Assembly (NCBI GenBank): GCA_024405265.1
Contig: JAKSOZ010000003.1
Coordinates: forward strand, 17,498-81,497
DNA length: 64,000 nt
Origin: Kiritimatiellia bacterium
GTDB lineage: Bacteria > Verrucomicrobiota > Kiritimatiellia > RFP12 > UBA1067
Reading direction: 5' to 3'
The stretch's first letter is position 1, and the number at the start of each line of letters is the position of its first letter. Position numbers and translations under genes: made by a program. A model generated the notes under the pieces. It saw nothing but the letters and a program-made list of their open reading frames with translations, ran no database searches and was not told where the DNA came from. Positions 23,086 through 64,000 of the stretch are shown in pieces.

Positions 23086-23100
23086 TCTTCTTTCTCCTTA

Positions 23101-24968: not shown

Positions 24969-25630
24969 TTCATTATCTTACTGACAAGCTCAAAGTCTTC
25001 AATGGTGGTGATCTTGAAATTAGGCTTAAGCGACTGCACGATTTTAACGGTACCACCATTATCCTCAATCGCCTTGCAATCATCCGTAATTTCTCCGTCA
25101 ACATTCTTGTAAGCCGCTCTCAAATCCTTCAAGAGGAATGCCTGAGGAGTTTGCACAAGCCAAAGCTTATCACGGTCAACGGTTTCGGATACGATTGCCG
25201 CTTTAGCGCATTTCTTAACCGTATCGATCATCGGACGGCCAACTGTGACCGCGCCTGACTTTTTAACAGCCGCTACCACCTCGCTGATCAATTCAGGAGT
25301 TACCAGCGGTCGCGCACCGTCATGAATAACGATATGCTTCGTATCCAAATCACAGGCCGCGATACCGGCCAAAACGGAATCTTGGCGACGAGTTCCGCCT
25401 TGAACTATTGCTTGAATCTTGGAAATGCCGAACATCTTGACAACCGCCTTCGAAGCGTCAAGCTGATCCTTGCGAACAACAAGAACTATCTTATCAATTT
25501 CCGGGGTACGTTCAAAAGCCATAAGGCTCCACGCCACAACAGGCTTACCGATCAAACTCAAGAAAGCCTTATCGGCTTTAGCGCCCATGCGCGTCGATTT
25601 ACCGGCAGCCAAAATAATCGCAGTTGTCAT
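24965..25630 (-). CDS. ispD: 2-C-methyl-D-erythritol 4-phosphate cytidylyltransferase
   Basis: [16 protein letters not shown]...DKAFL is the IspD N-terminus. Start set at ATG 25630 (ATGA overlap with the secA stop) rather than the track start 25651. Confidence 0.9.
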
Positions 25631-28578: not shown

Positions 28579-28587
28579 ACTATTGAA

Positions 28588-28596
28588 ATTATACCA
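28588..28596 (-). promoter_or_regulatory. Putative extended -10 promoter (TGGTATAAT), near-leaderless secA
   Basis: Minus strand reads ATATGGTATAAT-TTCAATAGT-ATG. Nine nt separate the hexamer from the ATG (28578) and there is no SD. Confidence 0.5.
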
Positions 28597-28602
28597 TATT
28601 TC

Positions 28603-29091
28603 TCAAAAGGTTGCACGCGTCATTGCGATTTCAGGGCAAGTATAGGGATCCGTATGCTTCGTGCAATTCATGCATCCGGTATACAGTTTGTGCATTATCT
28701 TGGTTTTAGGAACCTCATGAAAGCCTAGCTTTTCGAAGAATTCCGGTGTAAAAGTCAAAACGACAATCTCTCTTGGCTTGAAACATTTGACTTTGGAAGC
28801 AATCGTTTCTACAAGCGCTCTACCGATTCCTCGAGTTCTGAAAGCCGATTTGACCGCCAAGGACTGAATCTCTACCGTCGCGTTTTCAGGCGCTCCGATT
28901 TCTGGGTGGATCTGAAAGGTCGCGATACCGACCATTTCACCATCGGATTGAGCGACGATGAAACGATCGATATTGCTTACGATATTACCCATTGAACGCG
29001 GCACCAAAAGATCGTCATTCAGATCGATCATCGCGAAGATTTTCTCCGCGTCATCAAGCGTCGCGCCTCGAATAATCGTCTCGGAGTTCAT
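28603..29091 (-). CDS. GNAT family N-acetyltransferase
   Basis: 162 aa. Acetyl-CoA binding motif LAVKSAFRTRGIGRALV. Cys-rich C-terminal tail CMNCTKHTDPYTCP. Confidence 0.85.
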   Translation of the reverse strand: MNSETIIRGATLDDAEKIFAMIDLNDDLLVPRSMGNIVSNIDRFIVAQSDGEMVGIATFQIHPEIGAPENATVEIQSLAVKSAFRTRGIGRALVETIASKVKCFKPREIVVLTFTPEFFEKLGFHEVPKTKIMHKLYTGCMNCTKHTDPYTCPEIAMTRATF

Positions 29092-30282
29092 TCAGATCAA
29101 ATGCCCCATTTTTTCTTTCTTAGTCGAAAGATATCTGTGATCGTGTACATTCGCAGGGATCACAATCGGTACTCGTTCGGTGATTTCGATACCATAACCG
29201 TCAAGACCTGCGATCTTGCAAGGATTGTTCGTCATAAGGCGAACCTTTTTGATTCCTAGATCAACGAGCATCTGAGCGCCTTCACCATAGTCGCGGAGAT
29301 CGGGAGCGAAACCCAAGGCAACATTTGCTTCAACCGTATCGAGACCTTCTTCCTGCTTGCGATAAGCGTGAAGCTTATTCGCAAGTCCTATACCTCGACC
29401 TTCCTGACGCATGTAGAGTACCGCGCCACGACCTTCTTTCTCGATCATCTCCATTGCCGTATGAAGTTGCGGACCGCAGTCACAACGCTCGGATCCCAAA
29501 ACGTCTCCTGTGAAGCATTCTGAATGAACGCGTACGAGTACGCTTTCTCCGTCATCAACATTACCTTTGATAAGCGCAAGATGTTCGAGACCCGTCACGC
29601 GACTACGATACATCTTAAGGCGAAAATGTCCATGATCAGTCGGAAGATCAACTTCCTCGACTGCTTCGACGAGTTTATCATTCTTACGACGATACGCGAT
29701 CAAGTCCGCAATCGACATAAGCTTAAGACCATGCTTCTTCTTGAACTCGACGACATCATCAAGGCGCGCCATATTGCCGTCATCCTTCATGATTTCGCAA
29801 CAAAGCCCGACTTCCTTGAGCCCCGCGAGGCGGCAAAGGTCAACCGTCGCTTCGGTGTGACCGGCACGCTTAAGAACGCCGCCTTCACGCGCCTCCAAGG
29901 GGAACATGTGCCCTGGACGACGGAAGTCGTCCGGCTTAACGTTTTCTTCGACCGTCTTCAACGCCGTCATCGAACGTTCAGCGGCGGAAATGCCGGTAGT
30001 CGTATTAATGCCATCGATCGATACCGTGAATGCCGTCTGATGATTATCTGTATTCTGATGAACCATCTGAGGGAGGTCGAGCTTACGGCAATATTCACGC
30101 GACATAGGCATACAAATCAGCCCCCTCGCATACGTCGCCATGAAGTTCACATTCGCGGTGGTAGCGAATTCCGCCGCGCAGATGCAATCACCTTCGTTTT
30201 CGCGGTCTTCATCGTCAGTAACGAGAATCACCTCGCCCCGACGAAGCGCCGACAAGCAATCTTCTACTGAATCGAAAATCAT
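29092..30282 (-). CDS. ribBA: Bifunctional 3,4-dihydroxy-2-butanone-4-phosphate synthase / GTP cyclohydrolase II
   Basis: Start set at MIFDSVEDCLSALRRGEVILVTDDEDRENEGD (RibB). The C-terminal half carries VHSECFTGDVLGSERCDCGPQL (RibA). The track start 30450 overlaps pyrE. Confidence 0.93.
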   Translation of the reverse strand: MIFDSVEDCLSALRRGEVILVTDDEDRENEGDCICAAEFATTANVNFMATYARGLICMPMSREYCRKLDLPQMVHQNTDNHQTAFTVSIDGINTTTGISAAERSMTALKTVEENVKPDDFRRPGHMFPLEAREGGVLKRAGHTEATVDLCRLAGLKEVGLCCEIMKDDGNMARLDDVVEFKKKHGLKLMSIADLIAYRRKNDKLVEAVEEVDLPTDHGHFRLKMYRSRVTGLEHLALIKGNVDDGESVLVRVHSECFTGDVLGSERCDCGPQLHTAMEMIEKEGRGAVLYMRQEGRGIGLANKLHAYRKQEEGLDTVEANVALGFAPDLRDYGEGAQMLVDLGIKKVRLMTNNPCKIAGLDGYGIEITERVPIVIPANVHDHRYLSTKKEKMGHLI

Positions 30283-30284
30283 AA

Positions 30285-30896
30285 TTACGAACCGGGATGG
30301 ACGGGATGTCCGCCAGCCTTGCACATCGGGCACTCTTCTGCAGTCCAAGTTTCGGGCGTCATCTGCATAAGCGAGAACATCGGGATATCGCCAAATGTGA
30401 CCTTGCCGGACGAACGGTCGACGAGAAGAACGACTGCCGCGACTTCGCATCCCGCCGCCTTGACGAGGTCAATCGTTTCCTGAACACGGCCACCCTTCGT
30501 GACGACGTCTTCAGCGACTACATAACGTTCTCCGGGATTAAGTTTGAAACGGCGCATCGCGAGAACGGTATTGGGTTTACCCGTCGCGTCAACGCCATCA
30601 CCCTGAACCTTTTCGGCGAAAACACACTTCGTATCAAGCGCACGAGCGACTTCATGTCCGACAAGGATGCCGCCGACTGCGGGAGAAATGACTCCGTCGA
30701 TTCTGCCGATATCACATCCCGCCTTCATTTTTTCCACAACCGCGTCGCAAAGCTTCGCGGCAATACGCGGATAACGAAGGACATTCGCGCACTGGAAATA
30801 GCGATTCGAGTGAAGCTTCGAGCGGAGTTCGAAGTGCCCCTCCAAAAGAGCGTCAGTATCCTTGAAAGCCTGCAATACTTCTTCTTGCGTCATCAT
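30285..30896 (-). CDS. pyrE: Orotate phosphoribosyltransferase
   Basis: 203 aa. GHFELRSKLHSNRYFQ and PRPP-binding loop YVVAEDVVTKGG. Confidence 0.9.
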   Translation of the reverse strand: MMTQEEVLQAFKDTDALLEGHFELRSKLHSNRYFQCANVLRYPRIAAKLCDAVVEKMKAGCDIGRIDGVISPAVGGILVGHEVARALDTKCVFAEKVQGDGVDATGKPNTVLAMRRFKLNPGERYVVAEDVVTKGGRVQETIDLVKAAGCEVAAVVLLVDRSSGKVTFGDIPMFSLMQMTPETWTAEECPMCKAGGHPVHPGS

Positions 30897-30907
30897 ATTA
30901 ACTTTCC

Positions 30908-31369
30908 TTATTTGAGTTTCAATAAACCATCTTTTTCGAAAACATCAGTTCGCTCTCTCGCTCGCAGTTCAATTTTCTTGACCGGTTTCGCCGCTAGCGA
31001 AGGCGGTATCAAAGAGACTTTCCCCATATCTTTCGACTGTCGATCGAGCACATGAATAATGGGCAAATCAACTACACTTTTAGAATCCAATTCCGGAAGC
31101 CACTCAATCGTCATATCGATATTAAGCGAGTTTTCATCTCGCTGCCACGCATTACGCGATCGCGCTATCAAATCAGATTCTTCCTCTAAAGTAAGGAACA
31201 CGATCGAAGCCTTAGGAGTAAGTTCCGCTTCGCTACCGGAACTTTCGAATCCGATCGCACCATAAGGAAATACGAGCGCAAGCAACAAGGGGGTAATCAT
31301 AACCGCCATAAGCGAAAGGATTTCACTTTGCAAGCTGCGTTGAGCACCATATTTCACAGGCGAACTCAT
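30908..31369 (-). CDS. Hypothetical membrane-anchored protein (possible TonB/TolA-like partner of ExbBD)
   Basis: 153 aa with one TM helix (LSLMAVMITPLLLALVF). Start overlaps the exbD stop by 4 nt. No family recognised. Confidence 0.5.
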   Translation of the reverse strand: MSSPVKYGAQRSLQSEILSLMAVMITPLLLALVFPYGAIGFESSGSEAELTPKASIVFLTLEEESDLIARSRNAWQRDENSLNIDMTIEWLPELDSKSVVDLPIIHVLDRQSKDMGKVSLIPPSLAAKPVKKIELRARERTDVFEKDGLLKLK

Positions 31370-31779
31370 TCGTTGATATTCTCCGCCTTACGTTCCGCAA
31401 TCAATATTCGCACTATTCCGGCTCGTTTAGCCACAGAAGCGAGCTTCATCAATTCATCGGTAGGGACGCGCTTATCTACCATCAATATTAATGAACGATT
31501 CGCCTGTCTTGAGGCCACTTCTCTTAAATGACTCTCAAAACGCTCCAGCGAACTCTCGTCGTCAATCTGATAACGCGCATCATCGACAAATACGAGCGTT
31601 TCCCGAGCCGAAGGGAATACCACCGCAACTAACGCGGAGCTATCGCCTTCATTCGCACCGTACGCAGGCAAATCAAAAAGCACGCCCTTCGCGGAAGTGA
31701 ACGTTCCTCCTATCATCCAAATCATAACCAGAAGGAATACGACCGACAACCAGGCGGATATTATCGAAAGATTCTTCAC
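31366..31779 (-). CDS. exbD: Biopolymer transporter ExbD/TolR
   Basis: 137 aa. N-terminal TM helix followed by the periplasmic domain LILMVDKRVPTDELMKLASVAKRAGIVRILIA, typical of ExbD/TolR. Confidence 0.85.
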   Translation of the reverse strand: MKNLSIISAWLSVVFLLVMIWMIGGTFTSAKGVLFDLPAYGANEGDSSALVAVVFPSARETLVFVDDARYQIDDESSLERFESHLREVASRQANRSLILMVDKRVPTDELMKLASVAKRAGIVRILIAERKAENINE

Positions 31780-32396
31780 TTGGCTTCTCCCGAATGCAAG
31801 CTAGAGATGAATCCTACGATTTGACTGGCCGCCGCGTCCAAATCACTTACGATGCGATTCATTCTGTTTCGCAGATTGGTAGCCATGACGACGACAGGAA
31901 TCATTACCATCAGTCCAAGCGCCGCCGCTACCATAGCCTCCATGGCAGAATTCATAAGATCCGCGCGAGCCACAAGAGCTTCTGCATCCATCAGAAGAAT
32001 TGTTTTGATAAAACCGATAATCGTGCCTAAAAGTCCTAGAAGCGGGGCTATTTCGCCAATGACCGAAAGCACTGAGAGCCTACGTACCAGACGAGAGGCG
32101 TCAGCTCGTTTCTGAGAGTCAACGGCTTCTCGTAAAGAGCGTTCTCCCGCGTCACGATTGCGGATCGCCACAGCAACGACATTAGCCACCGGAACCATCG
32201 TATCTTCGCATATCGCGAGAGCTTCTTCTACGTTGCCTTGCTTTAGAATATTCTTCGCGCCGTTAACGAAGTCTTGCCAATCTATCTGACAACGGCGCAA
32301 CTCTATCAAGCGTTCGAAGTATACGACAATTGCCGCAACAGCCAAAATCAGTAGCAACCAAAATACGGGGCCTCCGGTAATCGTAAAGGACGTCAT
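31776..32396 (-). CDS. exbB: MotA/TolQ/ExbB proton channel protein
   Basis: 206 aa, three TM helices. Conserved LSVIGEIAPLLGLLGTIIGFI segment. Confidence 0.88.
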   Translation of the reverse strand: MTSFTITGGPVFWLLLILAVAAIVVYFERLIELRRCQIDWQDFVNGAKNILKQGNVEEALAICEDTMVPVANVVAVAIRNRDAGERSLREAVDSQKRADASRLVRRLSVLSVIGEIAPLLGLLGTIIGFIKTILLMDAEALVARADLMNSAMEAMVAAALGLMVMIPVVVMATNLRNRMNRIVSDLDAAASQIVGFISSLHSGEAK

Positions 32397-34399
32397 AAGA
32401 ATTTACCTTTCGCTTCTATGCGCTCGATTTGCTTTTCGGCTTCGAATTGAGCATTTACGCCGCTTGTTAAAATCAGCGTCAGGACTTTAATCGCTTGGAA
32501 GTCCCGGCCTCGGCTTTCGTATTCATTGGCAAGACGGAAGCCGGCCTTTGAAAACGATCCTCTTGCCTCATCATCATAGATTACACCTTTCTCGGCGCCA
32601 TCATGAAAAGCGAGAACGACATTCGAATAATATCGATCAATCGCTTCTTCAAGTCGTTTAAGTTTTTCCAAAGTACGAGCAATCTTGTATTCGACTACAA
32701 TTTTATCCGAGTCGGAAATAAGCGCATCGTCTCTTATATCGCGGTAAAGATTAAGTGCGTCTTCGTATCGCTTGGAATTATCCGCACCCAAAGCAAACAA
32801 CGCGTCAGCTCTTAGCGTCCTGGCCTTTAGATTCAAGCTTTCACTTACATCCCCCAGCATTACCACTCGTTCAAGCACAAGTATCGCCTCATCAAAACGC
32901 GCGAGTTGAATAAGAGCTTCGCCTTGAACGATAAGCGCCGCAGCAACAGCAGTCGACTCCGGATAATTTGCCGCGAGACTGGTAGCTAGCGAAATCGCTT
33001 TCGAAAAATCGCCGGCTGAAAAAGCTGCTCTCGCCGCCCACAATAAAGCATAAGGTGCTTCTCCGGCAAGAGGAATTTCCCTGACGTAGCGCGAGAATAG
33101 GCTCTCCGCCTCATCCCAATCTCCGCGATTATAAGCAACCTTCGCCAACCACAAAATGGAGTCCGTTCTAACCTTCTCGTCTCGCTTTTCTTCGGCGAGC
33201 TTTTTTGCCAGAGCCTCCGCCTCCGCATCACGCCCCTGTCCATAAAGACACAGCACCTTGAAGTATGACATTTTAAGCGTAAGATCATTATCCGCTTCCG
33301 CTATCTTATCGAACGCCTCTGCCGCGTCGGCAAAACGATACTCGTGAAACGCATCTCGGCCGATAACCTCAAGTTCTCTGAGCTTCAGATAGTTTCTAAG
33401 ACGCTTAGCGGCAACCGTATCCGGAAATTTATCCCGGATCACGTGGTATTGATTCATCGCCTCGCTACCTCTTCCTGATGCCGAAAGCGCGTCCGCAAGT
33501 TTAAGGAGCGCGAGTGACTTGGTTTCTTTATCATCGGAAAGATTATCAACTTGAGTGAAATCGGAAATAGCCTCTTCATATTTTCCGAGCTTCAAATTGG
33601 CCCACCCGCGTCCTTCCAGAAATTCAGTATCGGCAATCAGGTTAGGCCAAATTCCAAGCGCTTCCTCATATACGGCGATAGCCGAACTCCAAGCTCCCTC
33701 GTCAAGGTGCATCTTCGCGAGTTCCAAGTATGACGAAACCGCGCCATACGAATCCGGCGCGTCCTTAACGACTTCTTTTATCGTCTTCACCGCAACTTCG
33801 CGTTTTTCAGGATTTTTAAGGTCACTGATCGCGACTTTCAACGATGCGACTCGTTTGACGATTGCCGGCACTGTCGATGAAACGGCCAGTGTCTTATAAA
33901 TATCAAGCGCCGCATTCGCTTTATCCAATTTCGAAAGCAGTGATGCTTTGATCAATAAAGATCCCCAATCTTCTGCCTTTGATTCTTCCAAAAAAGCGAA
34001 TGCCTTATCATATTGAGCTTTGGTGATTTCGATTTCGCTCTTGATTCGCGCGGCGAAACGAGCATTAGCTTCTTCTGCGAAGTTCAAATCTCGCAACTGT
34101 TCCTCCGCGTTTATAATATCTCCGGTTCGTAGAAGCGCCGCGCTTTGATAAAGACGATACAACTCCCCCTCGGGATAATTCCAAGCCTCTAGGTTATCCA
34201 AGACTTTATGCCAATCGCCCTCCATGGCAAAAGACTCAAGGATAACCAACTTGGAGTTTTCGCCCTCGGATTTTTCGGCATGGTAACGAGCCAAGTCCCA
34301 CAGGCCATCTCTGAGTGCTGCCTGAGCGATTTCAAACTCATCGGCAAAGACGATAAGTGAAAATAGCGCGACAATCAAAAGAGAAACCGACTTTCTCAA
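32393..34399 (-). CDS. Secreted tetratricopeptide-repeat protein
   Basis: TPR-like repeats throughout. Start proposed at TTG 34399 (RKSVSLLIVALFSLIVFA signal peptide), which overlaps the era stop as TTGA. The track start 34453 would overlap era by 58 nt. Confidence 0.75.
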   Translation of the reverse strand: MRKSVSLLIVALFSLIVFADEFEIAQAALRDGLWDLARYHAEKSEGENSKLVILESFAMEGDWHKVLDNLEAWNYPEGELYRLYQSAALLRTGDIINAEEQLRDLNFAEEANARFAARIKSEIEITKAQYDKAFAFLEESKAEDWGSLLIKASLLSKLDKANAALDIYKTLAVSSTVPAIVKRVASLKVAISDLKNPEKREVAVKTIKEVVKDAPDSYGAVSSYLELAKMHLDEGAWSSAIAVYEEALGIWPNLIADTEFLEGRGWANLKLGKYEEAISDFTQVDNLSDDKETKSLALLKLADALSASGRGSEAMNQYHVIRDKFPDTVAAKRLRNYLKLRELEVIGRDAFHEYRFADAAEAFDKIAEADNDLTLKMSYFKVLCLYGQGRDAEAEALAKKLAEEKRDEKVRTDSILWLAKVAYNRGDWDEAESLFSRYVREIPLAGEAPYALLWAARAAFSAGDFSKAISLATSLAANYPESTAVAAALIVQGEALIQLARFDEAILVLERVVMLGDVSESLNLKARTLRADALFALGADNSKRYEDALNLYRDIRDDALISDSDKIVVEYKIARTLEKLKRLEEAIDRYYSNVVLAFHDGAEKGVIYDDEARGSFSKAGFRLANEYESRGRDFQAIKVLTLILTSGVNAQFEAEKQIERIEAKGKFL

Positions 34400-35334
34400 A
34401 TCTCGCCTCCCATATATCCCATATCGGTTAAAAGCCGCTTGTTCTTCATCCAATTAGGGATCACTTCAACCCAGAGCTCAAGCGCGATCTTCACTCCGAA
34501 AATATCTTTGAGCTCTCGCTCGGCGCACTTTCTGACATATTTGATCGTTTCCGCGCCCTTACCGATTACGATCGGTTTTTGGCTAGCGCGATTGACAATA
34601 ATCGATACCGTCACGTCCCAACGATTCGAATCTTCCTTAATGTCTTTAACCAGAATGCCCATTTCATGCGGAACTTCCTGATGCATCTTGGCAAGATACT
34701 TCTCGCGAATCGAGTCGGCAATCGTCATCTTCCTCGGATAGTCGGTTACGATATCTTCGTCGAAGAGCAATTCGCCTTCTTCCGCAAAATCGAAAAGCGT
34801 ATCAAGAACCTGATTTCCTCCGCCCTCGGTAGTGGAAATCGCCTTTACCCAAATGGGCTCAACGATCTTCACTTCACCTTCACCTTGGCTCTTCACCTGC
34901 AAAGCTTCATGCTTTGCTTCTTCCCACGCATCGCGAAACATCGACTCGAAGAACGGCGCCTTATCGGCCTTATTAAGGACAAAAACGACCTTCTCGCTAC
35001 GCTCCTTGGCAACGCGAGTCATCCACCCCATATCTTCCATTTGCGGCGCGGAAGCGGCATCGAAAACGACACAGAGGATATCGGTTCCCGCAGCGGACCT
35101 ACGCGCCATACGATTCAATATCTTACCGAGTTCGCCGACCGCTTTATGGAGTCCCGGAGTATCGAGCAAAACTAGCTGACCACGCTCGTCTGCCACAATA
35201 CCGCGAATCGTATTACGCGTCGTTTGCTCGACGGGAGAAACGATCGAGACCTTCTCGCCTACGAGACGGTTCATTAGAGTCGACTTACCTGCGTTAGTGC
35301 GCCCGACAATGCCTACTATAGCGACTTTCTTCAT
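34396..35334 (-). CDS. era: GTPase Era
   Basis: G1 GRTNAGKST, G3 DTPG, G4 NKAD, and a C-terminal KH domain. Confidence 0.95.
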   Translation of the reverse strand: MKKVAIVGIVGRTNAGKSTLMNRLVGEKVSIVSPVEQTTRNTIRGIVADERGQLVLLDTPGLHKAVGELGKILNRMARRSAAGTDILCVVFDAASAPQMEDMGWMTRVAKERSEKVVFVLNKADKAPFFESMFRDAWEEAKHEALQVKSQGEGEVKIVEPIWVKAISTTEGGGNQVLDTLFDFAEEGELLFDEDIVTDYPRKMTIADSIREKYLAKMHQEVPHEMGILVKDIKEDSNRWDVTVSIIVNRASQKPIVIGKGAETIKYVRKCAERELKDIFGVKIALELWVEVIPNWMKNKRLLTDMGYMGGEI

Positions 35335-35338
35335 AAAA

Positions 35339-35905
35339 TCACTTAGCGGAAATTACAAGCGATCGATTGGCGACATGAAAATGTTCGCTCTCCGGAGGCA
35401 AAGCGATACCCTCATAGGTGTCGCCGACCGAAGACGGAATCATAATCACTTTCCCGGCCCCTTTAACGACAATAGTCGGATTATTATCTCCGGCAATAAG
35501 GCGCGAAAGTATAATCGTATGATCGGTGTTGATTGTCAAAGTTCCATTAATTTTAATCTTCGAAGTATTGTAATATTTGAATGTACTATTGCTATCGCTA
35601 CCAAGACCGCCTACTTTCATATACTGAGCCCAATTGGCCGTCGACCCAAGCGTACAATTTTCCAATGTCAGCTCTGATTGGGCTGTGCGAACACGAATAC
35701 CCTTATCGCCTAACGACCAAGTGCCGCCGCTCAAGGTGACATAAACTGCAGTCTTATCAGTATACTCGATTCCGTCGTATGTTCCACCCGAGGTAATCGT
35801 CTGTCCGTTTTTACCATTCAGTGAAAGCACTTGCGCCTGCGCGACGAACATCGCCACAAACGCAATCGTAGCGCACAAACTTACCTTATAAAAACTATTT
35901 CTCAT
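35339..35905 (-). CDS. Hypothetical secreted protein (beta-rich)
   Basis: 188 aa. Signal peptide SLCATIAFVAMFVAQAQ. T/G/S-rich beta-strand-like body. No family recognised. Confidence 0.6.
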   Translation of the reverse strand: MRNSFYKVSLCATIAFVAMFVAQAQVLSLNGKNGQTITSGGTYDGIEYTDKTAVYVTLSGGTWSLGDKGIRVRTAQSELTLENCTLGSTANWAQYMKVGGLGSDSNSTFKYYNTSKIKINGTLTINTDHTIILSRLIAGDNNPTIVVKGAGKVIMIPSSVGDTYEGIALPPESEHFHVANRSLVISAK

Positions 35906-56786: not shown

Positions 56787-58190
56787 TTACTTTACCAACT
56801 CCTTGGCAGGTTCTTCCTTTTCTTCTTCCTTCGCCGCTTCCTTCGCTTTTTCCTTCGCATTCGAAGAGAAGAAAGCTTCGATTTCCTCGAGCGTCTTACC
56901 CTTCGTCTCCGGCATGAAGAAGGTCGCCGTGACGAAGTAGATCACCGTGAAGAACGCGAGCGTGAAGAAGACCCAAGCGTAACCGACGGCATTGACCCAA
57001 GGGTAGAAGACCGACGCGATGGTCGTGGAAACACCCTGGTTGATGAGAAGCGCGATCGCCATACCGTTCGCACGAATACGCGCGGGCATAAGTTCCGACA
57101 AGGCGAGCCAGACGCAAACGCCGGGGCCCGAAGCGAAGAAGCCGATGAAGACCATGAACGAAATCGCGGTCGCCCAGCCGGTTACCTGACTCGCGGCGCA
57201 AATACCGTGCTCAATTGCGAAGAACGAGCCGCCGACGCCCAAAAGACCGACGATAATGCCGAGAGTACCCATCTTAAGGAGGAACTTACGGCCCTTCATA
57301 TCGACGAGCGAAACGGCGACGATAGTCATAACGAGGTTGACGATCTTGATCGCGGTATCGGCATAGTTCGCGACGATGCCGGGAAGACCCGACTTATTGA
57401 AGATATCGACCGAGTAGTTGAGAACCGAGTTGATACCGGTAGCCTGCGTGCAAGCGAGAACGACAACCGCGAGGCAGAACGGCCAAATGTACTTCTTCTG
57501 GAAGAGGCTGTCCTTGGGTCCTTCAACTTTCGTTTCTTCACCCTCACCTTCAATCTTCACCCCGGCCTTCTTGGCGAGCCAAGTCGGAGATTCCTTGAGG
57601 CCGAAGATACCGGCGAGGAAGATGACGCCAGGAATCGCGGAGAGCCAGAAGACGGTCTTCCACGCGGTAACCTTGGTCGCGGCGGAAACGGTTTCAGCAT
57701 CCGCGGCGCCGAAGAACTTGGTGACGCCGACGCCCACGAGAGCCATGAAAACGAGACCGATCGTCAAAAAGAGTTGAAAGAGACCCGTGCCCTTGCCGCG
57801 CTGATCAGCGGGGAGACATTCCGCGAGGTACATCGGGATAACGACGCCGAGAAGACCCGCCGAAGCGCCCTGAACGAAGCGGCCGGCGACCATCACGCCG
57901 TAGTTACCGTCCGAGAAAACGATCATCGGAATCGAAGAAAGAAACACGATCGAGCCGATAAGAATCGTTTTCTTGCGACCTAACCAATCGGCAAAAACAC
58001 CGGCAGGAAGCGAACCGATAACCGAGCCGAAGAGAACCGCGCCGACGACCGTAGAAAGCGCCGCTTCGGAGAAGTAGTTAAGAGCTTTGATGTACGGAAG
58101 CGCGGAAGCGATCGCTCCGACGTCGATACCGTAAAGAAGACCACCGAGGCCAGCCATGCTCATCAAATAAATGATGTAACGCTTGTTCAT
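56787..58190 (-). CDS. MFS sugar porter family transporter
   Basis: 467 aa, 12 TM helices. DWLGRKK, PMYLAECLPADQRGKG and PETKGKTLEEIE are sugar-porter signatures. K/E-rich C-terminal tail. Confidence 0.9.
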   Translation of the reverse strand: MNKRYIIYLMSMAGLGGLLYGIDVGAIASALPYIKALNYFSEAALSTVVGAVLFGSVIGSLPAGVFADWLGRKKTILIGSIVFLSSIPMIVFSDGNYGVMVAGRFVQGASAGLLGVVIPMYLAECLPADQRGKGTGLFQLFLTIGLVFMALVGVGVTKFFGAADAETVSAATKVTAWKTVFWLSAIPGVIFLAGIFGLKESPTWLAKKAGVKIEGEGEETKVEGPKDSLFQKKYIWPFCLAVVVLACTQATGINSVLNYSVDIFNKSGLPGIVANYADTAIKIVNLVMTIVAVSLVDMKGRKFLLKMGTLGIIVGLLGVGGSFFAIEHGICAASQVTGWATAISFMVFIGFFASGPGVCVWLALSELMPARIRANGMAIALLINQGVSTTIASVFYPWVNAVGYAWVFFTLAFFTVIYFVTATFFMPETKGKTLEEIEAFFSSNAKEKAKEAAKEEEKEEPAKELVK

Positions 58191-58231
58191 TTTATGTTCG
58201 TTCCTTATTTTGGGATGAATATTTATTTTAT

Positions 58232-58240
58232 ATTATATCA
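58232..58240 (-). promoter_or_regulatory. Putative extended -10 promoter (TGATATAAT) for the MFS transporter
   Basis: Minus-strand TTTGATATAAT in an AT-rich gap. Predicted leader about 35 nt with AAGGAA SD. Confidence 0.5.
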
Positions 58241-58269
58241 AATTTTCGCGTTCTCGCCTATCCCCTTCG

Positions 58270-58593
58270 GTGGGCAATACGAAGATAGACCTATCCGGCC
58301 CGAACGAGGTACGTTCAGTCTATGCCGACCGGGAAGTCGAGAACATTCTTCAAGCTGAAGGTTCACCGCATTTACTGCCATACTTGCGGCAAGGAGTATC
58401 ACGAATCTTTTCCATTCCGGTCCTCAATGTGCATCTCGGATATCTCGCGTCTCTATTCAAAGAATGGATTTCCTTGGCTTCGGAGATTCCTGAGGTGATA
58501 GCAGCCGGGCAGATGGTCGAGAGACATCTCACGGGCATTCTCGGGTACTGGGAAGTTCAAGCGCTCGTCAAGTGCCTCAATAGAAGGATCTAA
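58270..58593 (+). pseudogene. ISL3-family transposase remnant (C-terminal fragment, decayed)
   Basis: The only plus-strand coding signal. ...KEWISLASEIPEVIAAGQMVERHLTGILGYWE...LVKCLN resembles the ISL3 C-terminus (...W.....I..F......R....GIL.YF...TN...EG.N.K). The downstream shifted frame reads GKVRWLMKQAY, like the KIK..KR.AYG tail. There is no N-terminal or DDE part. Confidence 0.5.
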
Positions 58594-58636
58594 CGGGAAA
58601 GTAAGATGGCTAATGAAGCAGGCCTATAGCTAAGCC

Positions 58637-58797
58637 TTACCTTAGGCAACCTCTACAACTCGCCTTAGGCGACACCTCCAAGTTGCCTTAGGCGACTTCA
58701 CAACTTCGCCTAAGGCGACTTCATCACTTCGCCTAAGGCGACATCGACAACTCGCCTAAGGCGACATTATAAACTCGACTAAGGCGACTTTCAGCCA
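58637..58797. repeat. Tandem array of 7 x 23 bp with palindromic core TCGCC-TWA-GGCGAC
   Basis: The CCTWAGG core recurs at 58640, 58663, 58686, 58709, 58732, 58755 and 58778, an exact 23-bp phase. Each unit has a 14-bp conserved core and a 9-bp semi-variable tail ending AAC(T). Non-coding. Confidence 0.9.
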
Positions 58798-58879
58798 CGT
58801 ACCGGCGCACACCGTCGTCTTACCCGCGAGACAGTCCCCAATAGTAATTATCATCTAGGACGCTGCCCTAGCTTCACAA

Positions 58880-59947
58880 TCAAAGTTGTTCTACTTTAAG
58901 TTTTCCTCTCTCATCAACCTTAAAGTATAGCGCGTAACAATTACGCTCGCAATGCTCGGGCATACACGAAGAAGCTTCCCGCTGATCGCGATGCTCGAGC
59001 GTAGGCGAAGGTTCTGGCGACTGATCGCGATGCTCGGGCAGTGCCCGAGCAATCTTAACGATCTCGTCATTAAGCTCCAAACACGCCCCCCGCGAGAAAT
59101 CGACCTCCTCATTACCCTCCGCTATCTCTAAATACCGATTCTCGAGGAACGCGTCGATATAGACGCTCTCTGGTTTATAATCTATCGGCATCCTATTAGG
59201 CAGTATTCTGATGAATTTCGCGCTCGAACTTTTCGCGAGCATATCTCTCACCGCTCGCTCTCCAGGGCTGATAAAACCACTTATTATGACAAAACCCTGT
59301 TCGACCGCGTTCTCCATTCGCGTGACAATCTCGTCAATCATCTTAGCCGTACATTTTCGCGATATTCTTAACGAAACGAACTTTTCTTCGTTCAACAGCG
59401 CCAGATTTCCCACCCCTTTCCAATAATCATCCCGATCCAAGCGGAATGAATCGATTGGTTCTTTGATCCGAAGCGCTTCCGGGCGATTATGCATTAGCTC
59501 ATACTTGGCCGGATTATACGCGATATATCGCGCAGTTGCTTCGATTTTCTTTCTCTTTAAGCAAAGATGATCGTGGTATCCCTGCTGCCATTTGAGCGGC
59601 GGATTTGCCGCGATATCTTTGGAATAGCGAATAAGATGGTTTTTGAAGCCCGCAATCGCCTTACCGAGGTTTTTCAACGGCTCCGGCAAGTTCGGGAGTA
59701 TTCGTATATTGAAATGGACGTGATCCGGCATGACGACTCGTTCAAATAGCTGCAAGCCATCCGTTTTTATCGGAAGTTGCGCTAGAGTACGCTCAACTTC
59801 TCGTCCAAGCTCGTTCAGAATCACCTTACCATCGACGATCTTTCCGAAATATTCGCCTCTTGGATTTGTGGTGATTGTAACGAAAAGCATCGCACCATTC
59901 GAATAATCCCACTTCTTAAATCGTCGATAGAAATGTATCTCGGCCAT
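58880..59947 (-). CDS. IS200/RAYT-like HUH (Y1) nuclease fused to a C-terminal DprA/SLOG-like domain (tentative); tail encoded by 39-bp repeats
   Basis: N-terminal LFVTITTNPR..., VVMPDHVHFNI (HUH), WQQGYHDHLCL and ARYIAYNP are COG1943-type transposase motifs. Residues about 185-300 (RISRKCT..., GFVIISGFISPGERAVRDML, FIRILPNRMPIDYKPES, LEIAE) resemble the DprA Rossmann core. Residues 303-340 are 13-aa repeats (EHRDQ...). Confidence 0.75.
   Translation of the reverse strand: MAEIHFYRRFKKWDYSNGAMLFVTITTNPRGEYFGKIVDGKVILNELGREVERTLAQLPIKTDGLQLFERVVMPDHVHFNIRILPNLPEPLKNLGKAIAGFKNHLIRYSKDIAANPPLKWQQGYHDHLCLKRKKIEATARYIAYNPAKYELMHNRPEALRIKEPIDSFRLDRDDYWKGVGNLALLNEEKFVSLRISRKCTAKMIDEIVTRMENAVEQGFVIISGFISPGERAVRDMLAKSSSAKFIRILPNRMPIDYKPESVYIDAFLENRYLEIAEGNEEVDFSRGACLELNDEIVKIARALPEHRDQSPEPSPTLEHRDQREASSCMPEHCERNCYALYFKVDERGKLKVEQL
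58943..59055 (+). repeat. 3 x 39-bp tandem REP-like repeat ending in a perfect hairpin (59032-59050)
   Basis: The GCTCGGGCA-type motif occurs at 58954, 58993 and 59032. The last unit, CTGATCGCGATGCTCGGGCA-G-TGCCCGAGC, is a 9-bp-stem palindrome. The array lies inside the 3-prime end of the HUH gene, in frame (13 codons per unit). Confidence 0.85.
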
Positions 59948-59956
59948 ATGTTAGAA

Positions 59957-59965
59957 ATTATATCA
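59957..59965 (-). promoter_or_regulatory. Putative extended -10 promoter (TGATATAAT), near-leaderless HUH gene
   Basis: Minus strand reads TGATATAAT-TTCTAACAT-ATG (ATG 59947). Confidence 0.45.
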
Positions 59966-60030
59966 TAAGCTCACACTTCCCGCAAACGAAACCTCTCGAG
60001 ACTCGCGGCTCGCAGACAGAGCTCATACCG

Positions 60031-60180
60031 CAGATTGCGATACTCGGTCGTACGCGAATGAGCTACCCTCAGATCGCGCTACTCGGGCGAAGCGTTAGTC
60101 TCGCCTCCCTGATCGCGCTGCTCGGGCGAAGCGTTAGTCCCCTCGCTCTGATCGTGATGCTCGGGCAATGCCCGAGCTAA
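60031..60180 (+). repeat. 4 x 39-bp tandem REP-like repeat ending in a perfect hairpin (60159-60177)
   Basis: Motif at 60042, 60081, 60120 and 60159, an exact 39-bp phase. The last unit, CTGATCGTGATGCTCGGGCA-A-TGCCCGAGC, has the same stem as the copy at 59032. Same orientation as the left array. Confidence 0.85.
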
Positions 60181-60209
60181 CAACAAGCGCCGCGGAGTGC
60201 GCGGCGCTT
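60178..60209 (-). terminator. Stem-loop terminator downstream of the giant surface-protein gene (possibly bidirectional)
   Basis: AAGCGCCGCG-GAGTG-CGCGGCGCTT is a perfect 10-bp GC-rich stem, 38 nt after the stop at 60247. The minus-strand tail is GUUGUUA. The plus-strand tail GUGUUGGUUUUGUU is more U-rich. Confidence 0.5.
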
Positions 60210-60246
60210 GTGTTGGTTTTGTTAGATTTCAGCCATTGACATTGAG

Positions 60247-63200
60247 TTACTTAGTCGCCTTGACGCTGACCTTGTAGTACTTCACCTTATTGTCTCCGGT
60301 GAAGGTCATCGGGATCGAGACCGTCTTCGCCTCGCCGCTCGTCGCCTGATCGCCAGAGCCGGTCGCGCTTTCAAACGTACCATCAGGCGTATCGCACGAC
60401 GAAACCGCGTAGAAGAGACCCGGAATCGGGTTCGTGATCGTGAACTGAACCTTATCCGTCGATTCCTCAGTCGGCGCGGCCATTGTCGTAACCGCCGGTT
60501 GGGTCGTCTGATCATCCTTCAGCGTCGTCGTGATCGTGCCATCTGCGGTCGTAACCGTGCAATAGTCCGTCACATCGTACGCCGAACCGCTTCCGGTCGC
60601 GCTCGGGATCTTGACGGTAATCGTTGTCGGCGCAGTGCCCGTATAGGTTGCTTCCTGTCCGGGAACGAGGGAAACCTCCGTCGTACCCTGCGGGATGACA
60701 ATCTCCGGCGGCACACCGCCGTTCTGCATCAGCTCATAGACCTTAGCCAAGCCAACCTCATTGTAAACGACGCTGTAGCCATCAACTGTGGTCGTAACCG
60801 TGCCAGTGGCAGATGCAACCGTTGCTTTCGACGCTGTAGCCGTCAGAACAAGATTACCAGCGATCGTACCCGAACCTGTAATCGTACCGGCGACTTCAAC
60901 GCCACCGACCGACGTCCAGATCTTGCCCGAGCCGATTGTAACCGTCTTGCCGCTATTAACGACAATCTTACCATCGTTCGCGGCAGTTCCGGAATCGCCG
61001 ATCGTAACGCGAAGATTCGCGGCATCGATATTACCAGTGAAGCCCTCGACACTCTTAAGGAGGATGTTCGCCGTAGAACCGGCACGCGAATTAACCTTGA
61101 GCGTACCCGAGCCGGTAACCTTGAGGCCATAGTTGTAGCCGTTGGAACTATCGCCGATCCATAGAGCCGGTTCATCATTGGCATCAACGAGTTCAACCGT
61201 CGGGCCGAAATCGCCGCCGTTAGCAAGCCAACCGACGTTGCCGGTAGTAATCACTGTCGAGCTGGCATTGCCGTAAGCATTAATGTTGAAGTTCGGGCAA
61301 GTATAGCCACCTGTCGCGCTTTCGCTGTCAGTCTTTCTGAAGGACTTCTTCAAATAAACGCTTCCGTTCCATGTATTCGCCTGGAGGCTCGTCTGAACAG
61401 CGTCAGAAGGAACGCGCTGATCATAAATGAGCTTACCATTACCCGTCAGCTTGGCCGTACCGCCAATTGTTCCTTCGATGCGAATACCTCCGGTCTTCTC
61501 GGCCTGTCCCCAGGTGCCTTCACCATTAAGAGTCAGATCGCCAAGAATGGCATTATCATGATGATCGTTATTCCAAAAGCCGAAGAGGACACGCGCACCG
61601 GAATCGATTGTAATCATCGATCCGTTCGGCATATTCTTGTTTCCGTTCGACTCCCAATCATCATGACCGAAAGTCACCGTCGCATTGTTCGTGACCTTAA
61701 TCTTTAAGGGATCAGCAGGAGCATAGTCCTTCGAGACATAAACCGCTGTTGTCTCGTTGAAAACAACAGTATCATCCGCCGTACGCGTCGTTGCGGCAGT
61801 CTTTGCCTCGTCGGCATAGAACGTCACATTAGCATCCCACGTGTTATTATTCGTGCCGGTACCTTCCTTCCAATAGATTTCGGTTGTATTGCGCTTCGCA
61901 CGGAAGTAATAGCTACCGCCCTCGTAAACAAGACCACCGGTAATATAAGACGGATAATCGGGCTTCAGAAGTTGAATCTTCTCATTGTTCGACGCAATAA
62001 CACCCGTCAACTGGAGATCGACCGGCTGATTCAAAATCAGCGCACCAGTCAGCGACGAGAAGTCAAAAATGATCTTACCATTATCACCAAGCTCCGTCGG
62101 ACCACCGGTAAAGTCAAGCGCTCCATGCTCAATCTTGACCGTCGTATTAACTTCGATCTGTCCAGCCTTGATCATATTGGCCGTCGTCTCGGCAACATCT
62201 GCTGTGAAGGTAACCGTACCCGTACCGTTAATCGTGAGCTTTTCGTACGAAGCGGGAGCCGTAAGGTTATTCGCAACCGTTACGTTCCCTTCGGTCGTCA
62301 ACACCACTGTCTGATTTTCATTCGGCTTGTCGGCCTGCGTCACCGTACCATCCTTCGATGTCAGCGTCCACGCATCCGTCTTGACCCAGTCATCATCCTC
62401 GGTAATCGTGCGCGTTGCCGTGCCATTCAGAGAGGTATACGGGAATTCATCCGCAAACGCCTTAATCGCCTTCTCGCTCAACTGGCAATCAAAGATACGA
62501 ACCGCCGAGATTGTCGAATTTGCCGCCGTCGTATCCGTCGGCTTCACAAGGCCCGTCGAGCCGACACCGCCATGCACCGAACCAACCTGCAAGCTCGAAC
62601 CGAACGACACATTCGAAACCGCCTGCTCGGCCCAATACTTGCCATCGAGATAAACGATAATCGATGTGGCAGTCTTCACAAAGCCATAAGTATGACGTGT
62701 CTCACGCGCATTCGTCACCGTCATCGGATTACCGATGACCGAATAAGCGCTGTTACCCGTCGTACGGACAAGAATAACCTCATTCGGTGAGGTGCCGGCT
62801 GCAAGGCCGATAAGTCCTCCATCTCTCGTACCAAAGGCAATCAATACGCCCTTATTCACATTCGGTACGACGCCGGCGACCAAGCAGGTCCAGGTTGTCG
62901 GATACGAGACCGTAAAGTCTGAATACGGCGTTGCCGGCGTCTTAATCGCCAAGTGATTGTCCGTAAAGCCATTGGATTGCGAGTAACCGGTATCCCAATG
63001 AAGACTATTCGTATTCTTACCCGTGCTCGCCAGATTGCGATCATAAAGGAACGTCCAATCGTAAAGCGCAGCCGTATTCTTAACAACGGGAGTAATCGGA
63101 GTCGTTCCGTTTCCGACCTGAATTTCCGTACCATCAGGCATCACGACAGGTATCTTCACATCGTCGCCAAGTCCCTGGATCGTAATCGAGCCCTGAATCA

Positions 63201-64000
63201 GGTTCTCATTATCGGTAATGGCCGTCTTCACATCACCCTCCTCAACCGTCAACTTGGAGAAGTCGCGGAGATTATGAATGACAAGCGTGCCGGCACCGGT
63301 CTTCTTAAGCGTGCCTGTACCGGTAAACGTCGCATTAAGTGTCATCGTCTTACCGGAAGCAACGTCAAGAGTCGTCTCCGTACCATCCTTCAACGTAATC
63401 GGATTGGCTGTGTCGATAATGAGGTTATTTTCGATGGAACGCACAGTACCGCCGGCCAAGGTCAGAGTCTTACCATCCTTGAAATAAAGGCCCCACTTAC
63501 CAAGTTCAAGGACACCATTTTCAAGTACCTTCAGGGACGAGGCATGGACGCGATTATTGTAGCTGATGCCCATCGCCTTGAAAGTCGCGGTAGCCGAACC
63601 GCCGCCAATCGTCATATCAACGCTGGAGTCGCGTCCGAAGCCGACAGTACCCGTATGCGCATCAATTTCACCACCGACGAAATTGTAGGTCGTCTTGGCA
63701 TTCGGCCAGTGCGCGAAAAGGACAGGCCCTTCCTGGTTATCCATTGTCGAAGGATCCCGATCAAGTTCCTTGGACAGCGTAATCGTTCCGCTCTTCTGAG
63801 TAATCGTCTGCACAGCGCCATTCGAGTTGCCCGTAAGAAGACGTGTAGCGGAGAAATTGCCTTCGAAAATATAATTCGCCTTCTTCTGAGACATACCGAT
63901 GACACCTGTCGCTGTCACCGGACGCGCAACTTCAACAGTTCCCTTCACCTCCGTTGTCTCATACGGAAGAGCCGAGAGCGCCGTCGTGCCTTCAAAGCGA
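60247..64000 (-). CDS. Giant surface protein with autotransporter-associated beta-strand repeats and a LamG/concanavalin-like domain; 5-prime end outside the window
   Basis: More than 1250 aa. The frame stays open upstream of the track start (GTG 63948) to position 64000. TGTGTLKKTGAGTLVIHNL-type repeats. Residues about 296-515 look like a LamG domain (...ILVRTTGNSAYSV...IVYLDGKYWAEQ...RIFDCQLSEKAIKAF). T/G/N-rich beta-helix-like remainder. Confidence 0.8.
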   Translation of the reverse strand, partial: RFEGTTALSALPYETTEVKGTVEVARPVTATGVIGMSQKKANYIFEGNFSATRLLTGNSNGAVQTITQKSGTITLSKELDRDPSTMDNQEGPVLFAHWPNAKTTYNFVGGEIDAHTGTVGFGRDSSVDMTIGGGSATATFKAMGISYNNRVHASSLKVLENGVLELGKWGLYFKDGKTLTLAGGTVRSIENNLIIDTANPITLKDGTETTLDVASGKTMTLNATFTGTGTLKKTGAGTLVIHNLRDFSKLTVEEGDVKTAITDNENLIQGSITIQGLGDDVKIPVVMPDGTEIQVGNGTTPITPVVKNTAALYDWTFLYDRNLASTGKNTNSLHWDTGYSQSNGFTDNHLAIKTPATPYSDFTVSYPTTWTCLVAGVVPNVNKGVLIAFGTRDGGLIGLAAGTSPNEVILVRTTGNSAYSVIGNPMTVTNARETRHTYGFVKTATSIIVYLDGKYWAEQAVSNVSFGSSLQVGSVHGGVGSTGLVKPTDTTAANSTISAVRIFDCQLSEKAIKAFADEFPYTSLNGTATRTITEDDDWVKTDAWTLTSKDGTVTQADKPNENQTVVLTTEGNVTVANNLTAPASYEKLTINGTGTVTFTADVAETTANMIKAGQIEVNTTVKIEHGALDFTGGPTELGDNGKIIFDFSSLTGALILNQPVDLQLTGVIASNNEKIQLLKPDYPSYITGGLVYEGGSYYFRAKRNTTEIYWKEGTGTNNNTWDANVTFYADEAKTAATTRTADDTVVFNETTAVYVSKDYAPADPLKIKVTNNATVTFGHDDWESNGNKNMPNGSMITIDSGARVLFGFWNNDHHDNAILGDLTLNGEGTWGQAEKTGGIRIEGTIGGTAKLTGNGKLIYDQRVPSDAVQTSLQANTWNGSVYLKKSFRKTDSESATGGYTCPNFNINAYGNASSTVITTGNVGWLANGGDFGPTVELVDANDEPALWIGDSSNGYNYGLKVTGSGTLKVNSRAGSTANILLKSVEGFTGNIDAANLRVTIGDSGTAANDGKIVVNSGKTVTIGSGKIWTSVGGVEVAGTITGSGTIAGNLVLTATASKATVASATGTVTTTVDGYSVVYNEVGLAKVYELMQNGGVPPEIVIPQGTTEVSLVPGQEATYTGTAPTTITVKIPSATGSGSAYDVTDYCTVTTADGTITTTLKDDQTTQPAVTTMAAPTEESTDKVQFTITNPIPGLFYAVSSCDTPDGTFESATGSGDQATSGEAKTVSIPMTFTGDNKVKYYKVSVKATK

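Follow-up and report, generated by a model that had tools for sequence, protein, structure and literature searches.

How REP-associated tyrosine transposases (RAYTs) act on repetitive extragenic palindromes (REPs), and why hosts keep them, is in general still open. The question is raised in a compact form by an islet at positions 58191-60246 of a 64-kb stretch of DNA from a Kiritimatiellia bacterium (the window, analysed at its full length), where a gene for a HUH/Y1 nuclease stands among hairpin-bearing repeats. The islet lies between a sugar-transporter gene of the major facilitator superfamily (MFS; 56787-58190, minus strand) and a gene for a giant surface protein (60247-63948, minus strand). 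Is it a mobile element, the remnant of one, or a host gene accompanied by its own substrate? The nuclease gene (58880-59947, minus strand) encodes a 355-aa protein, deposited as a 'hypothetical protein' (NCBI MCQ2367640.1) from a metagenome-assembled genome (MAG) of Kiritimatiellae, in which a predicted RAYT-type nuclease domain is fused to a DprA-like domain, and hairpin-bearing repeats accompany nearly all of its full-length homologues. In our view the core of the islet is probably a REPtron-like unit, that is, a vertically maintained, low-copy, domesticated RAYT-type HUH nuclease together with its cognate REP-like hairpin repeats.

The fusion gene and its two domains

The first-pass annotation of this DNA had recognised a minus-strand HUH/Y1 gene with an unusual C-terminal half. 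The gene is confirmed, and the second half can now be described more precisely as a distinct domain with a DprA-like Rossmann fold, detected with Foldseek. A search of 5.8 billion proteins yielded 768 homologues, nearly all of them unannotated. According to an alignment of 36 homologues, the conserved core of the family comprises aa 1-301 and the last 19 residues, and three motifs are invariant: PDHVH (aa 74-78), WQQGYHD (aa 120-126) and RY141IAYNP146. The AlphaFold2 model built on a 36-sequence alignment has a mean predicted local distance difference test score (pLDDT) of 86 and a predicted template modelling score (pTM) of 0.80, and is split into two domains by Foldseek comparison with PDB.

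Foldseek, profile and motif evidence jointly delimit the N-terminal Y1 HUH nuclease domain (aa 1-154; 59486-59947, minus strand). Its fold is that of E. coli TnpA_REP in complex with a REP hairpin (4er8, E=7e-5), with further matches to the IS608, ISDra2 and IS200 transposases. Profile comparison with PDB placed ISDra2 TnpA at the top (E=8e-6), and TnpA_REP of 4er8 was matched at E=1.3e-4. When the domain is aligned to 4er8, PDHVH corresponds to the HUH motif PEHMH, WQQGYHD to WQPRFWEH and RY141IAYNP to DYIYINP. The HUH motif thus consists of H76 and H78 (59714-59722, minus strand), and Y141 within RYIAYNP (59525-59527, minus strand), aligned to Y132 of ISDra2, is the candidate catalytic tyrosine. 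The tyrosine of WQQGYHD was also considered for this role and rejected, since the alignments to ISDra2 Y132 and to TnpA_REP both point to Y141. The best profile matches of the gene, REP_Tyr_transpos and Y1_Tnp, are sub-threshold, so the protein is a divergent relative of REP_Tyr_transpos and not an equivalog. As judged from sequence and model, the N-terminal domain is nevertheless a predicted class-2 (RAYT/TnpA_REP-type) Y1 nuclease, because the Y---NP signature marks TnpA_REP in the classification of Quentin et al. 2018 (PMC6006769).

The C-terminal domain (aa 155-301; 59045-59485, minus strand) has a DprA-like Rossmann fold of SLOG type and contains an invariant SGFxSxGE motif. Its best Foldseek match is the DprA-like protein ShosA (8zva); DprA proteins of four species were also retrieved (4ljr, 4ljk, 5mll, 3maj and 3uqz; probability 1.0, E from 2e-5 to 3e-4). 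Neither Pfam nor NCBIfam gave a match to this domain, Pfam DNA_processg_A included, and no sequence link to canonical DprA was detected. Among 1.84 billion representatives, phmmer retrieved only 192 clusters with this domain, and nearly all are HUH fusions: almost all of the matched segments are C-terminal parts of 300-430-aa proteins, several of which score for Y1_Tnp. Behind this domain follow an in-frame repeat insertion (aa 302-336; 58940-59044, minus strand), situated in the loop that precedes the terminal beta-hairpin, and the beta-hairpin itself (aa 337-355; 58883-58939, minus strand), defined by the alignment and the model.

The core of the gene evolves under strong purifying selection. 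Compared with L098 (comparison loci are given as L numbers), the protein of which is 91% identical over its whole length, dN/dS of the core is 0.055 (dS=0.33, dN=0.018), with values of 0.044 for the N-terminal and 0.068 for the C-terminal domain; the transporter gene shows the same ratio when compared with its own relative. The gene is therefore not inert, and decayed insertion sequence (IS) debris, an outcome that the first-pass annotation had envisaged, is excluded. The sequence comparisons indicate a conserved and functional gene for an HUH enzyme. A predicted extended -10 promoter element, TGATATAAT (59957-59965, minus strand), is positioned 9 nt ahead of the ATG and occupies the same place in L098, L099 and L100; the transcript probably has no leader or a very short one. 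Extended -10 elements (TGnTATAAT) very near start codons are found in the window, L098-L101 and L232-L234, and that of the transporter gene (58205-58215) is combined with a longer conserved leader.

Hairpin repeats at the gene and across its family

Two 39-bp arrays on the same strand, each ending in a hairpin, had been described as bracketing the gene. The arrays and their hairpins stand; the bracketing does not, since array A lies inside the open reading frame (ORF), in frame. Array A (58943-59050, plus strand) consists of three units, each composed of a 19-nt core, CTGATCGCGATGCTCGGGC, and a 20-nt spacer, and terminates in hairpin H1 (59032-59050, plus strand), which is located in the C-terminal loop of the ORF, has the tail ATCGCGATCAG and is found in the window, L098, L099 and L100. 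Array B (60031-60177, plus strand) has four units, is located upstream of the promoter, is untranslated and terminates in hairpin H3 (60159-60177, plus strand). Both array B and H3 are degenerate in L098 and missing from L099 and L100, so that H3 proper is confined to the window. The array-terminating hairpin has the form GCTCGGGCA-N2-GCCCGAGC, also written GCTCGGGCA(G/A)TGCCCGAGC. The 39-bp core has 7 matches against 0.74 expected, a count reached in none of 100 shuffles.

Array A amounts to an in-frame insertion of ~35 codons, after which the family core resumes in the alignment at CYALYFKV; pLDDT is below 50 within the insert and above 90 after it. The number of units varies between close relatives: P0001/L098 lacks exactly one 39-bp unit, having two where the window has three. 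In the window the 19-nt cores average 81% identity against 45% for the 20-nt spacers, although array A encodes a disordered loop. The distal units of the two arrays are homologous in register, with a spacer identity of 70%, which makes arrays A and B directly oriented copies of a single block.

A further hairpin, H2 (GCTAGGGCAGCGTCCTAG; 58855-58872, minus strand), is located 8 nt past the stop codon. It is present in the whole subclade (window, L098-L100), decayed in the window and intact in the relatives (GCTCGGGCAGCGCCCGAG in L098, GCTCGGGCAGTGCCCGAG in L099 and GCTTGGGCCGTGCCCAAGC in L100), and its stem carries a compensatory double change in the window and another in L100. An assignment of H2 as inverted with respect to H1 and H3, made from a TGAT/TGAA tag, was dropped: this tag overlaps with the context of the stop codon and, in some relatives, lies 6 nt away.

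Homologues of full length, which form a rare family, occur in MAGs of Kiritimatiellia, Lentisphaerae and Verrucomicrobiota, mostly from gut and rumen. In a scan of GTDB species representatives, the best match listed was 54% identical and the species of the window itself was not among the matches listed, which did include Bacteroidales homologues at 25-28% identity. Nearly every locus among the 27-30 that were translated and compared with themselves has its own short, lineage-specific and usually hairpin-bearing repeats. The association of hairpin repeats with the nuclease is real and common to the family. Repeats are found at a limited set of sites: upstream of the start codon (often in frame), in the alphaC:beta4 loop, in the C-terminal loop (as in L013), and at or after the C-terminus. 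Several loci (L011, L015, L017, L044 and the window) have one and the same repeat unit, directly oriented, on either side of the gene. The repeats flanking L017 are 176 nt long and each contains an inverted pair of hairpins, as in REPINs (REP doublets forming hairpins). A hairpin followed by an ATCA(A/G) tail, which on the other strand reads as TGAT 5' of the stem, recurs across lineages, and the recurrent peptides EHSSAIKS and DGQTxFGQ turned out to be two orientations of one repeat unit.

The upstream arrays of L008, L011, L015, L018, L034, L045 and the window have periods that are mostly multiples of three (36, 39, 48, 33, 21, 30 and 39). In several loci they are open and in frame and, going by their sequence, may encode N-terminal extensions of the protein; the upstream array of the window (60031-60177) is cut off from the ORF by stop codons and the promoter. 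Dispersed 116-nt repeats in L013 were considered as REPINs and rejected, as they represent the PEP-CTERM tail and terminator of neighbouring genes. Such a ~110-nt PEP-CTERM-type tail with its terminator occurs four times within 5 kb of that locus (L013:1-125, 760-900, 3480-3600 and 5000-5160).

As for copy number, identity between paralogues of the same genome is only 57% and 34%, and their flanks are unrelated. In 10 assemblies from different samples, one orthologue is found at an identical position, inside a glycosyltransferase operon where stop and start codons overlap. Viral contigs yielded one distant full-length relative. HUH-DprA genes are often located in glycosyltransferase or polysaccharide clusters, or beside very large secreted or surface proteins with CBM9, Beta_helix_3, Laminin_G_3 or PATR domains (L002, L004, L006, L088, L008, L010, L012, L015, L017, L018 and, in the window, 60247-63948). 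Most entries in the table of 768 matches come from contigs of 1-2.5 kb, roughly the gene alone, a sign, perhaps, that assembly is interrupted by the flanking arrays or by flanks that vary between strains.

A metagenome scan for GATGCTCGGGCNNNGCCCGAGC matched a different and widespread palindromic element, (C)GTGGATGCTCGGGCCAAGCCCGAGCATGACG, of high-GC soil and sediment bacteria. The contigs concerned (L106-L185) have a GC content of 57-72%, and the element shares the GCTCGGGC/GCCCGAGC stem with the hairpin of the window. None of the 80 loci listed has a homologue of the HUH-DprA gene near this element, and the scan says nothing on the dispersal of repeats in the genome of the window.

Edges and remaining features of the islet

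That the stretch is accessory, as had been proposed, is borne out by comparison with relatives. Homology with every available relative ends at 58245-58252, upstream of the sugar-transporter gene, and five relatives have five different upstream neighbours of the transporter, the homology break being a synteny breakpoint. The left edge of the islet is marked by the promoter and 5' leader of the MFS transporter (58191-58252, minus strand), which contain TTGATATAAT and are conserved in L101 and L232-L234. The neighbours seen at the breakpoint (window 56787-58252 compared with L101, L102-L104 and L231-L234) are a beta-helix protein, LptD_N, FolD, a radical SAM protein and the islet. On the downstream side, the transporter orthologues of the relatives keep synteny with Lactamase_B, a 274-aa protein and TsaD. 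None of the compared transporter orthologue loci has the HUH gene at the transporter-upstream site; these relatives are distant, their flanking genes being ~73-77% identical at the nucleotide level. Against L232-L234, nucleotide identity reaches ~89-90% for the transporter gene but only 73-77% for the adjacent downstream genes. The comparison shows that the islet is lineage-specific, and does not establish a recent insertion.

The HUH gene had been thought, by eye, to be more AT-rich than its surroundings. A windowed GC run confirmed this relative to its immediate neighbours (46-47% against 54-58% GC). However, several stretches at ~19000-35500 of the window, where the mean is 52.2% (standard deviation 3.1), have a GC content equal to or below that of the gene, with a minimum of 0.44 near 23000; with the 19-35 kb region as low or lower, the gene is not a window-wide outlier. 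The islet is surrounded by chromosomal housekeeping genes, with no plasmid or phage genes near it, and contains no tnpB-like ORF. An Rfam scan of 57.5-61 kb at E<=1 gave chance-level matches only.

At its left end the islet contains a candidate remnant of an ISL3-type transposase (58322-58630, plus strand), heavily deleted and frame-shifted, which the first-pass annotation had already pointed out. Two colinear plus-strand profile matches favour this assignment: a 58-aa ORF (58322-58498) matches positions 35-66 of NCBIfam transpos_ISL3, its N-terminal zinc-finger part (E=0.018), and a stitched peptide from ~58430-58630 matches positions 169-222 of Pfam DDE_Tnp_ISL3, the C-terminal part (E=0.015). 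Both are below threshold, and tblastn of the ORF against plasmids gave no match, so that the ISL3 identity of the fragment is plausible on sequence grounds. No inverted repeats of the remnant were identified, and it looks like an unrelated passenger of the variable region.

Next to it lies the phased array of seven 23-bp units (58637-58797), fully as first described, with units starting at 58637, 58660, 58683, 58706, 58729, 58752 and 58775 and thus spaced by exactly 23 bp. Each unit has a 13-14-nt palindromic core, TCGCCT(A/T)AGGCGA, and a spacer of ~9 nt. The core has 13 matches against 0.79 expected (a count reached in 0 of 100 shuffles), and elsewhere in the window there are only two matches with 2 mismatches, at 5888 and 40858. 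Folded as single-stranded DNA (ssDNA), the array has z=-8.5 and -10.3 on the two strands. L099, whose homologue is 74% identical, has a 23-bp-period array as well, ~380 nt upstream of the start codon and with 4.5 copies of a palindromic core, GTGTTGGGCAACAC, plus a 9-nt spacer, besides a 21-bp array (the arrays being at L099:29-132 and L099:178-253). The 23-bp arrays of L099 and the window agree in period and layout, are unrelated in sequence and lie on opposite sides of the gene. Such an array is therefore present in 2 of the 2 subclade loci with enough flank. The 23-bp arrays may bind a protein or represent a second class of hairpin units, but they may also be coincidental.

At the other end of the islet, the strong stem-loop noted earlier (60183-60211, minus strand) was recovered with a 12-bp stem, -17.8 kcal/mol and z=-5.3. 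Starting 36 nt past the stop codon of the giant surface-protein gene (60247), it is probably, judging by its sequence, the ordinary intrinsic terminator of that gene. L099 and L100 have terminator hairpins of a comparable kind ahead of their HUH promoters. In L100, a 26-nt stretch (L100:1137-1162) that is 96% identical to the last codons of the giant gene (window 60264-60289) is followed by the promoter-like TGATATAAT. This stretch is found downstream of the HUH gene in L100 and upstream of it in the window, a placement that hints at rearrangement around the HUH and giant genes.

Competing explanations and known systems

If the islet core is REPtron-like, a mechanism along the following lines may be envisaged. 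The N-terminal domain would recognise, on transiently single-stranded DNA, the 8-9-bp hairpin GCTCGGGC-N3-GCCCGAGC together with the adjacent conserved tail, which reads ATCGCGATCAG on the gene strand and, on the opposite strand, forms a CTGATCGCGAT tag 5' of the hairpin. It would then cleave and rejoin DNA via Y141, with a metal held by H76 and H78. The DprA-like domain, a probable ssDNA-binding module, would hold the neighbouring ssDNA, or possibly recruit RecA. Repeated cleavage and rejoining, along with slippage between the 19-nt cores, would copy units locally and in one orientation, and would expand and contract the arrays; units landing in the gene would be tolerated only if in frame and within a permissive loop. 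We infer both that these repeats are the target of the protein and the role given here to its DprA-like domain.

Several points weigh against a REPtron-like unit. The profile scores stay below the curated cut-offs (48.3 bits for NCBIfam REP_Tyr_transpos, cut-off 80; 22 bits for Pfam Y1_Tnp, cut-off 23). The property that defines REPs is the presence of many dispersed extragenic copies, and here neither the 39-bp unit nor the hairpin occurs in the other 62 kb of the 64-kb window; in ~240 kb of flanks from 27 homologous loci there are only two likely dispersed copies, one intergenic and 2.5 kb away in L027, the other 3.5 kb away in L036. H3 and H1 are in direct orientation, and the REPs flanking canonical REPtrons are inverted. 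Replication slippage alone could grow the arrays, SLOG-type domains can be ligand sensors instead of ssDNA binders, and the proposed link between protein and repeats comes from their co-occurrence in sequences. Finally, the 23-bp array and the ISL3 remnant are left unexplained.

Among the alternatives, the gene might be the transposase of an autonomous IS200/IS605-like element, with H3 and H1/H2 as left and right subterminal ends and an ssDNA circle as intermediate. Such an element would account for the IS608-like placement of same-strand hairpins to either side of the gene, for an islet that is non-syntenic, locally AT-richer and adjoined by an ISL3 remnant, and for homologues that, like repeated elements, mostly come from very short contigs. 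Yet the tyrosine motif is Y---NP (class 2) and not Y---Q, tnpB is missing, same-genome copies are only 34-57% identical with unrelated flanks, one orthologue is packed into an operon at a single site in 10 assemblies, and dN/dS matches the low value of the neighbouring transporter gene. Moreover, H1 lies inside the ORF, where excision would remove the conserved C-terminal beta-hairpin, and we regard this explanation as unlikely. It is likewise improbable that the repeats are slippage-prone minisatellites or low-complexity linkers, tolerated in and near the gene of an enzyme with some other cellular substrate. The unit-precise indel between the window and L098, the frequent in-frame periods in multiples of three and the scarcity of dispersed copies would all fit slippage. 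However, the recurrence of repeats of unrelated sequence at one gene family in four phyla is hard to explain without a functional link; the hairpins have a conserved tail and compensatory stem changes, conservation is much higher in cores than in spacers even within a disordered coding loop, both orientations of the unit occur, and units are also found in non-coding flanks.

A role of the protein in a defence or conflict system, as a nuclease that senses a ligand or ssDNA by analogy to the DprA-like ShosA/PsyrA antitoxins and with regulatory repeats, is in our view very unlikely. The first place of ShosA (8zva) among the Foldseek matches, a weak PADLOC match to PsyrA (E=0.039) and the position of the gene in a variable region speak for it, but the whole protein has no significant PADLOC match, no partner toxin gene is present, the neighbours vary, and viral contigs supplied a single distant relative; a PHROGs search gave nothing significant. 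The least credible option takes the islet for what is left of an origin, from a rolling-circle plasmid or a phage, with the HUH protein as Rep, the 23-bp array as iterons and a hairpin as the double-strand origin, or else for inert decayed IS debris. The combination of iteron-like array, hairpin and HUH protein does resemble the layout of an origin, although the fold and motifs are those of Y1 transposases and RAYTs and not of a Rep family, plasmid or phage genes are absent nearby, and the family is chromosomal with stable synteny; debris is excluded by the strong purifying selection. Among the ssDNA-based systems to which the first-pass annotation had likened the islet, then, the REP/RAYT analogy is retained, that with IS200/IS605 fails on the motif, the lack of tnpB, the few and diverged copies and the stable synteny, and that with rolling-circle replicons lacks a plasmid or phage context.

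A bolder and quite doubtful extension of the REPtron-like reading would see in HUH-DprA and its tagged hairpin arrays a self-contained local device for ssDNA recombination, in which strand-specific copy-paste in cis remodels the protein's own coding sequence and the adjacent variable loci for surface proteins and glycans, the DprA-like domain channels ssDNA to RecA, and the 23-bp palindrome arrays form a second class of sites. If true, this would be a programmed system of local diversification and not a genome-wide disperser of REPs; if the link between enzyme and repeats is only evolutionary baggage, the family is simply a new RAYT subclass. The repeats that stay at the gene allow enzyme and substrate to be read together from one locus, the in-frame arrays provide a built-in record of repeat gain and loss, and the kinship of the added domain with DprA, which binds ssDNA and loads RecA, suggests that hairpin cleavage may be linked, in a testable way, to recombination or to the handling of ssDNA. 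All this concerns a family annotated as 'hypothetical protein', found mostly in gut and rumen bacteria of the Planctomycetes-Verrucomicrobia-Chlamydiae (PVC) group and in Bacteroidales, often beside giant surface proteins or glycan clusters.

How, then, does the locus compare with described systems, for which the class-2 TnpA_Y1 scheme of Quentin et al. 2018 (PMC6006769) and the RAYT groups of Bertels et al. 2017 (PMC5581495) provide the reference? Its closest counterpart is the REP/RAYT system typified by E. coli TnpA_REP (4ER8). Both have the Y1 HUH fold with its HUH, WQ and Y---NP motifs; in both the gene is low in copy and stable in synteny, its paralogues are diverged, and it is flanked by lineage-specific hairpin repeats with a conserved tag beside the stem. 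Some members of the family also have REPIN-like inverted pairs. In contrast to RAYTs, the window protein has an extra conserved DprA-like domain of ~150 aa and reaches 48 bits on the curated RAYT hidden Markov model, the cut-off of which is 80; the repeats gather at the gene with hardly any dispersal, and form tandem arrays of core plus spacer, with the flanking copies of the window in direct orientation. The earlier verdict that the islet matches no canonical layout was too strong, since a RAYT gene flanked by its own REPs or REPINs is the canonical REPtron and internal REPs are documented (PMC6006769). The latter were described as REP insertions inside tnpA_REP genes of subclass 2.4 (PMC6006769), which corresponds to group 4 of Bertels and occurs in Cyanobacteria and Bacteroidetes. 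As here, REPs within the coding sequence of subclass 2.4 produce a repetitive loop of variable length; however, they are inserted at beta3:alphaC, and not in the alphaC:beta4 and C-terminal-domain loops, the motifs are NH[IFV]H and YIxNNP instead of DH[VIL]H and YIxYNP, and the proteins have a median length of 194 aa without the C-terminal domain.

With TnpA of IS200/IS605 (IS608, ISDra2) the islet shares the catalytic fold, the one-strand hairpins on both sides of the gene and the ssDNA chemistry to be expected; it differs in having Y---NP instead of Y---Q, 355 instead of ~150 aa, no tnpB, no identical multi-copy insertions among the homologues compared and one hairpin within the ORF. The C-terminal domain resembles DprA/Smf and SLOG proteins (H. 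pylori DprA, 4LJR; ShosA, 8ZVA) in its Rossmann-like fold, with a template modelling (TM) score of ~0.5 and a root-mean-square deviation of 4 A over ~148 residues, and its SGxxxxGE signature is, by eye, reminiscent of SGxAxGxD in DprA. Unlike DprA, it has no match to Pfam DNA_processg_A, lacks the sterile alpha motif (SAM) and winged-helix domains and is fused to a nuclease. None of the 12 subclasses of Quentin et al. 2018 was reported with a DprA-like domain (PMC6006769), and we found no description of such a fusion to an HUH nuclease in the literature on RAYT, IS200 or HUH proteins with DprA or SLOG. A RAYT-type gene with its own flanking and internal repeats is thus already known, and it is the fusion to a DprA-like domain that, by the literature searched, appears to be new.

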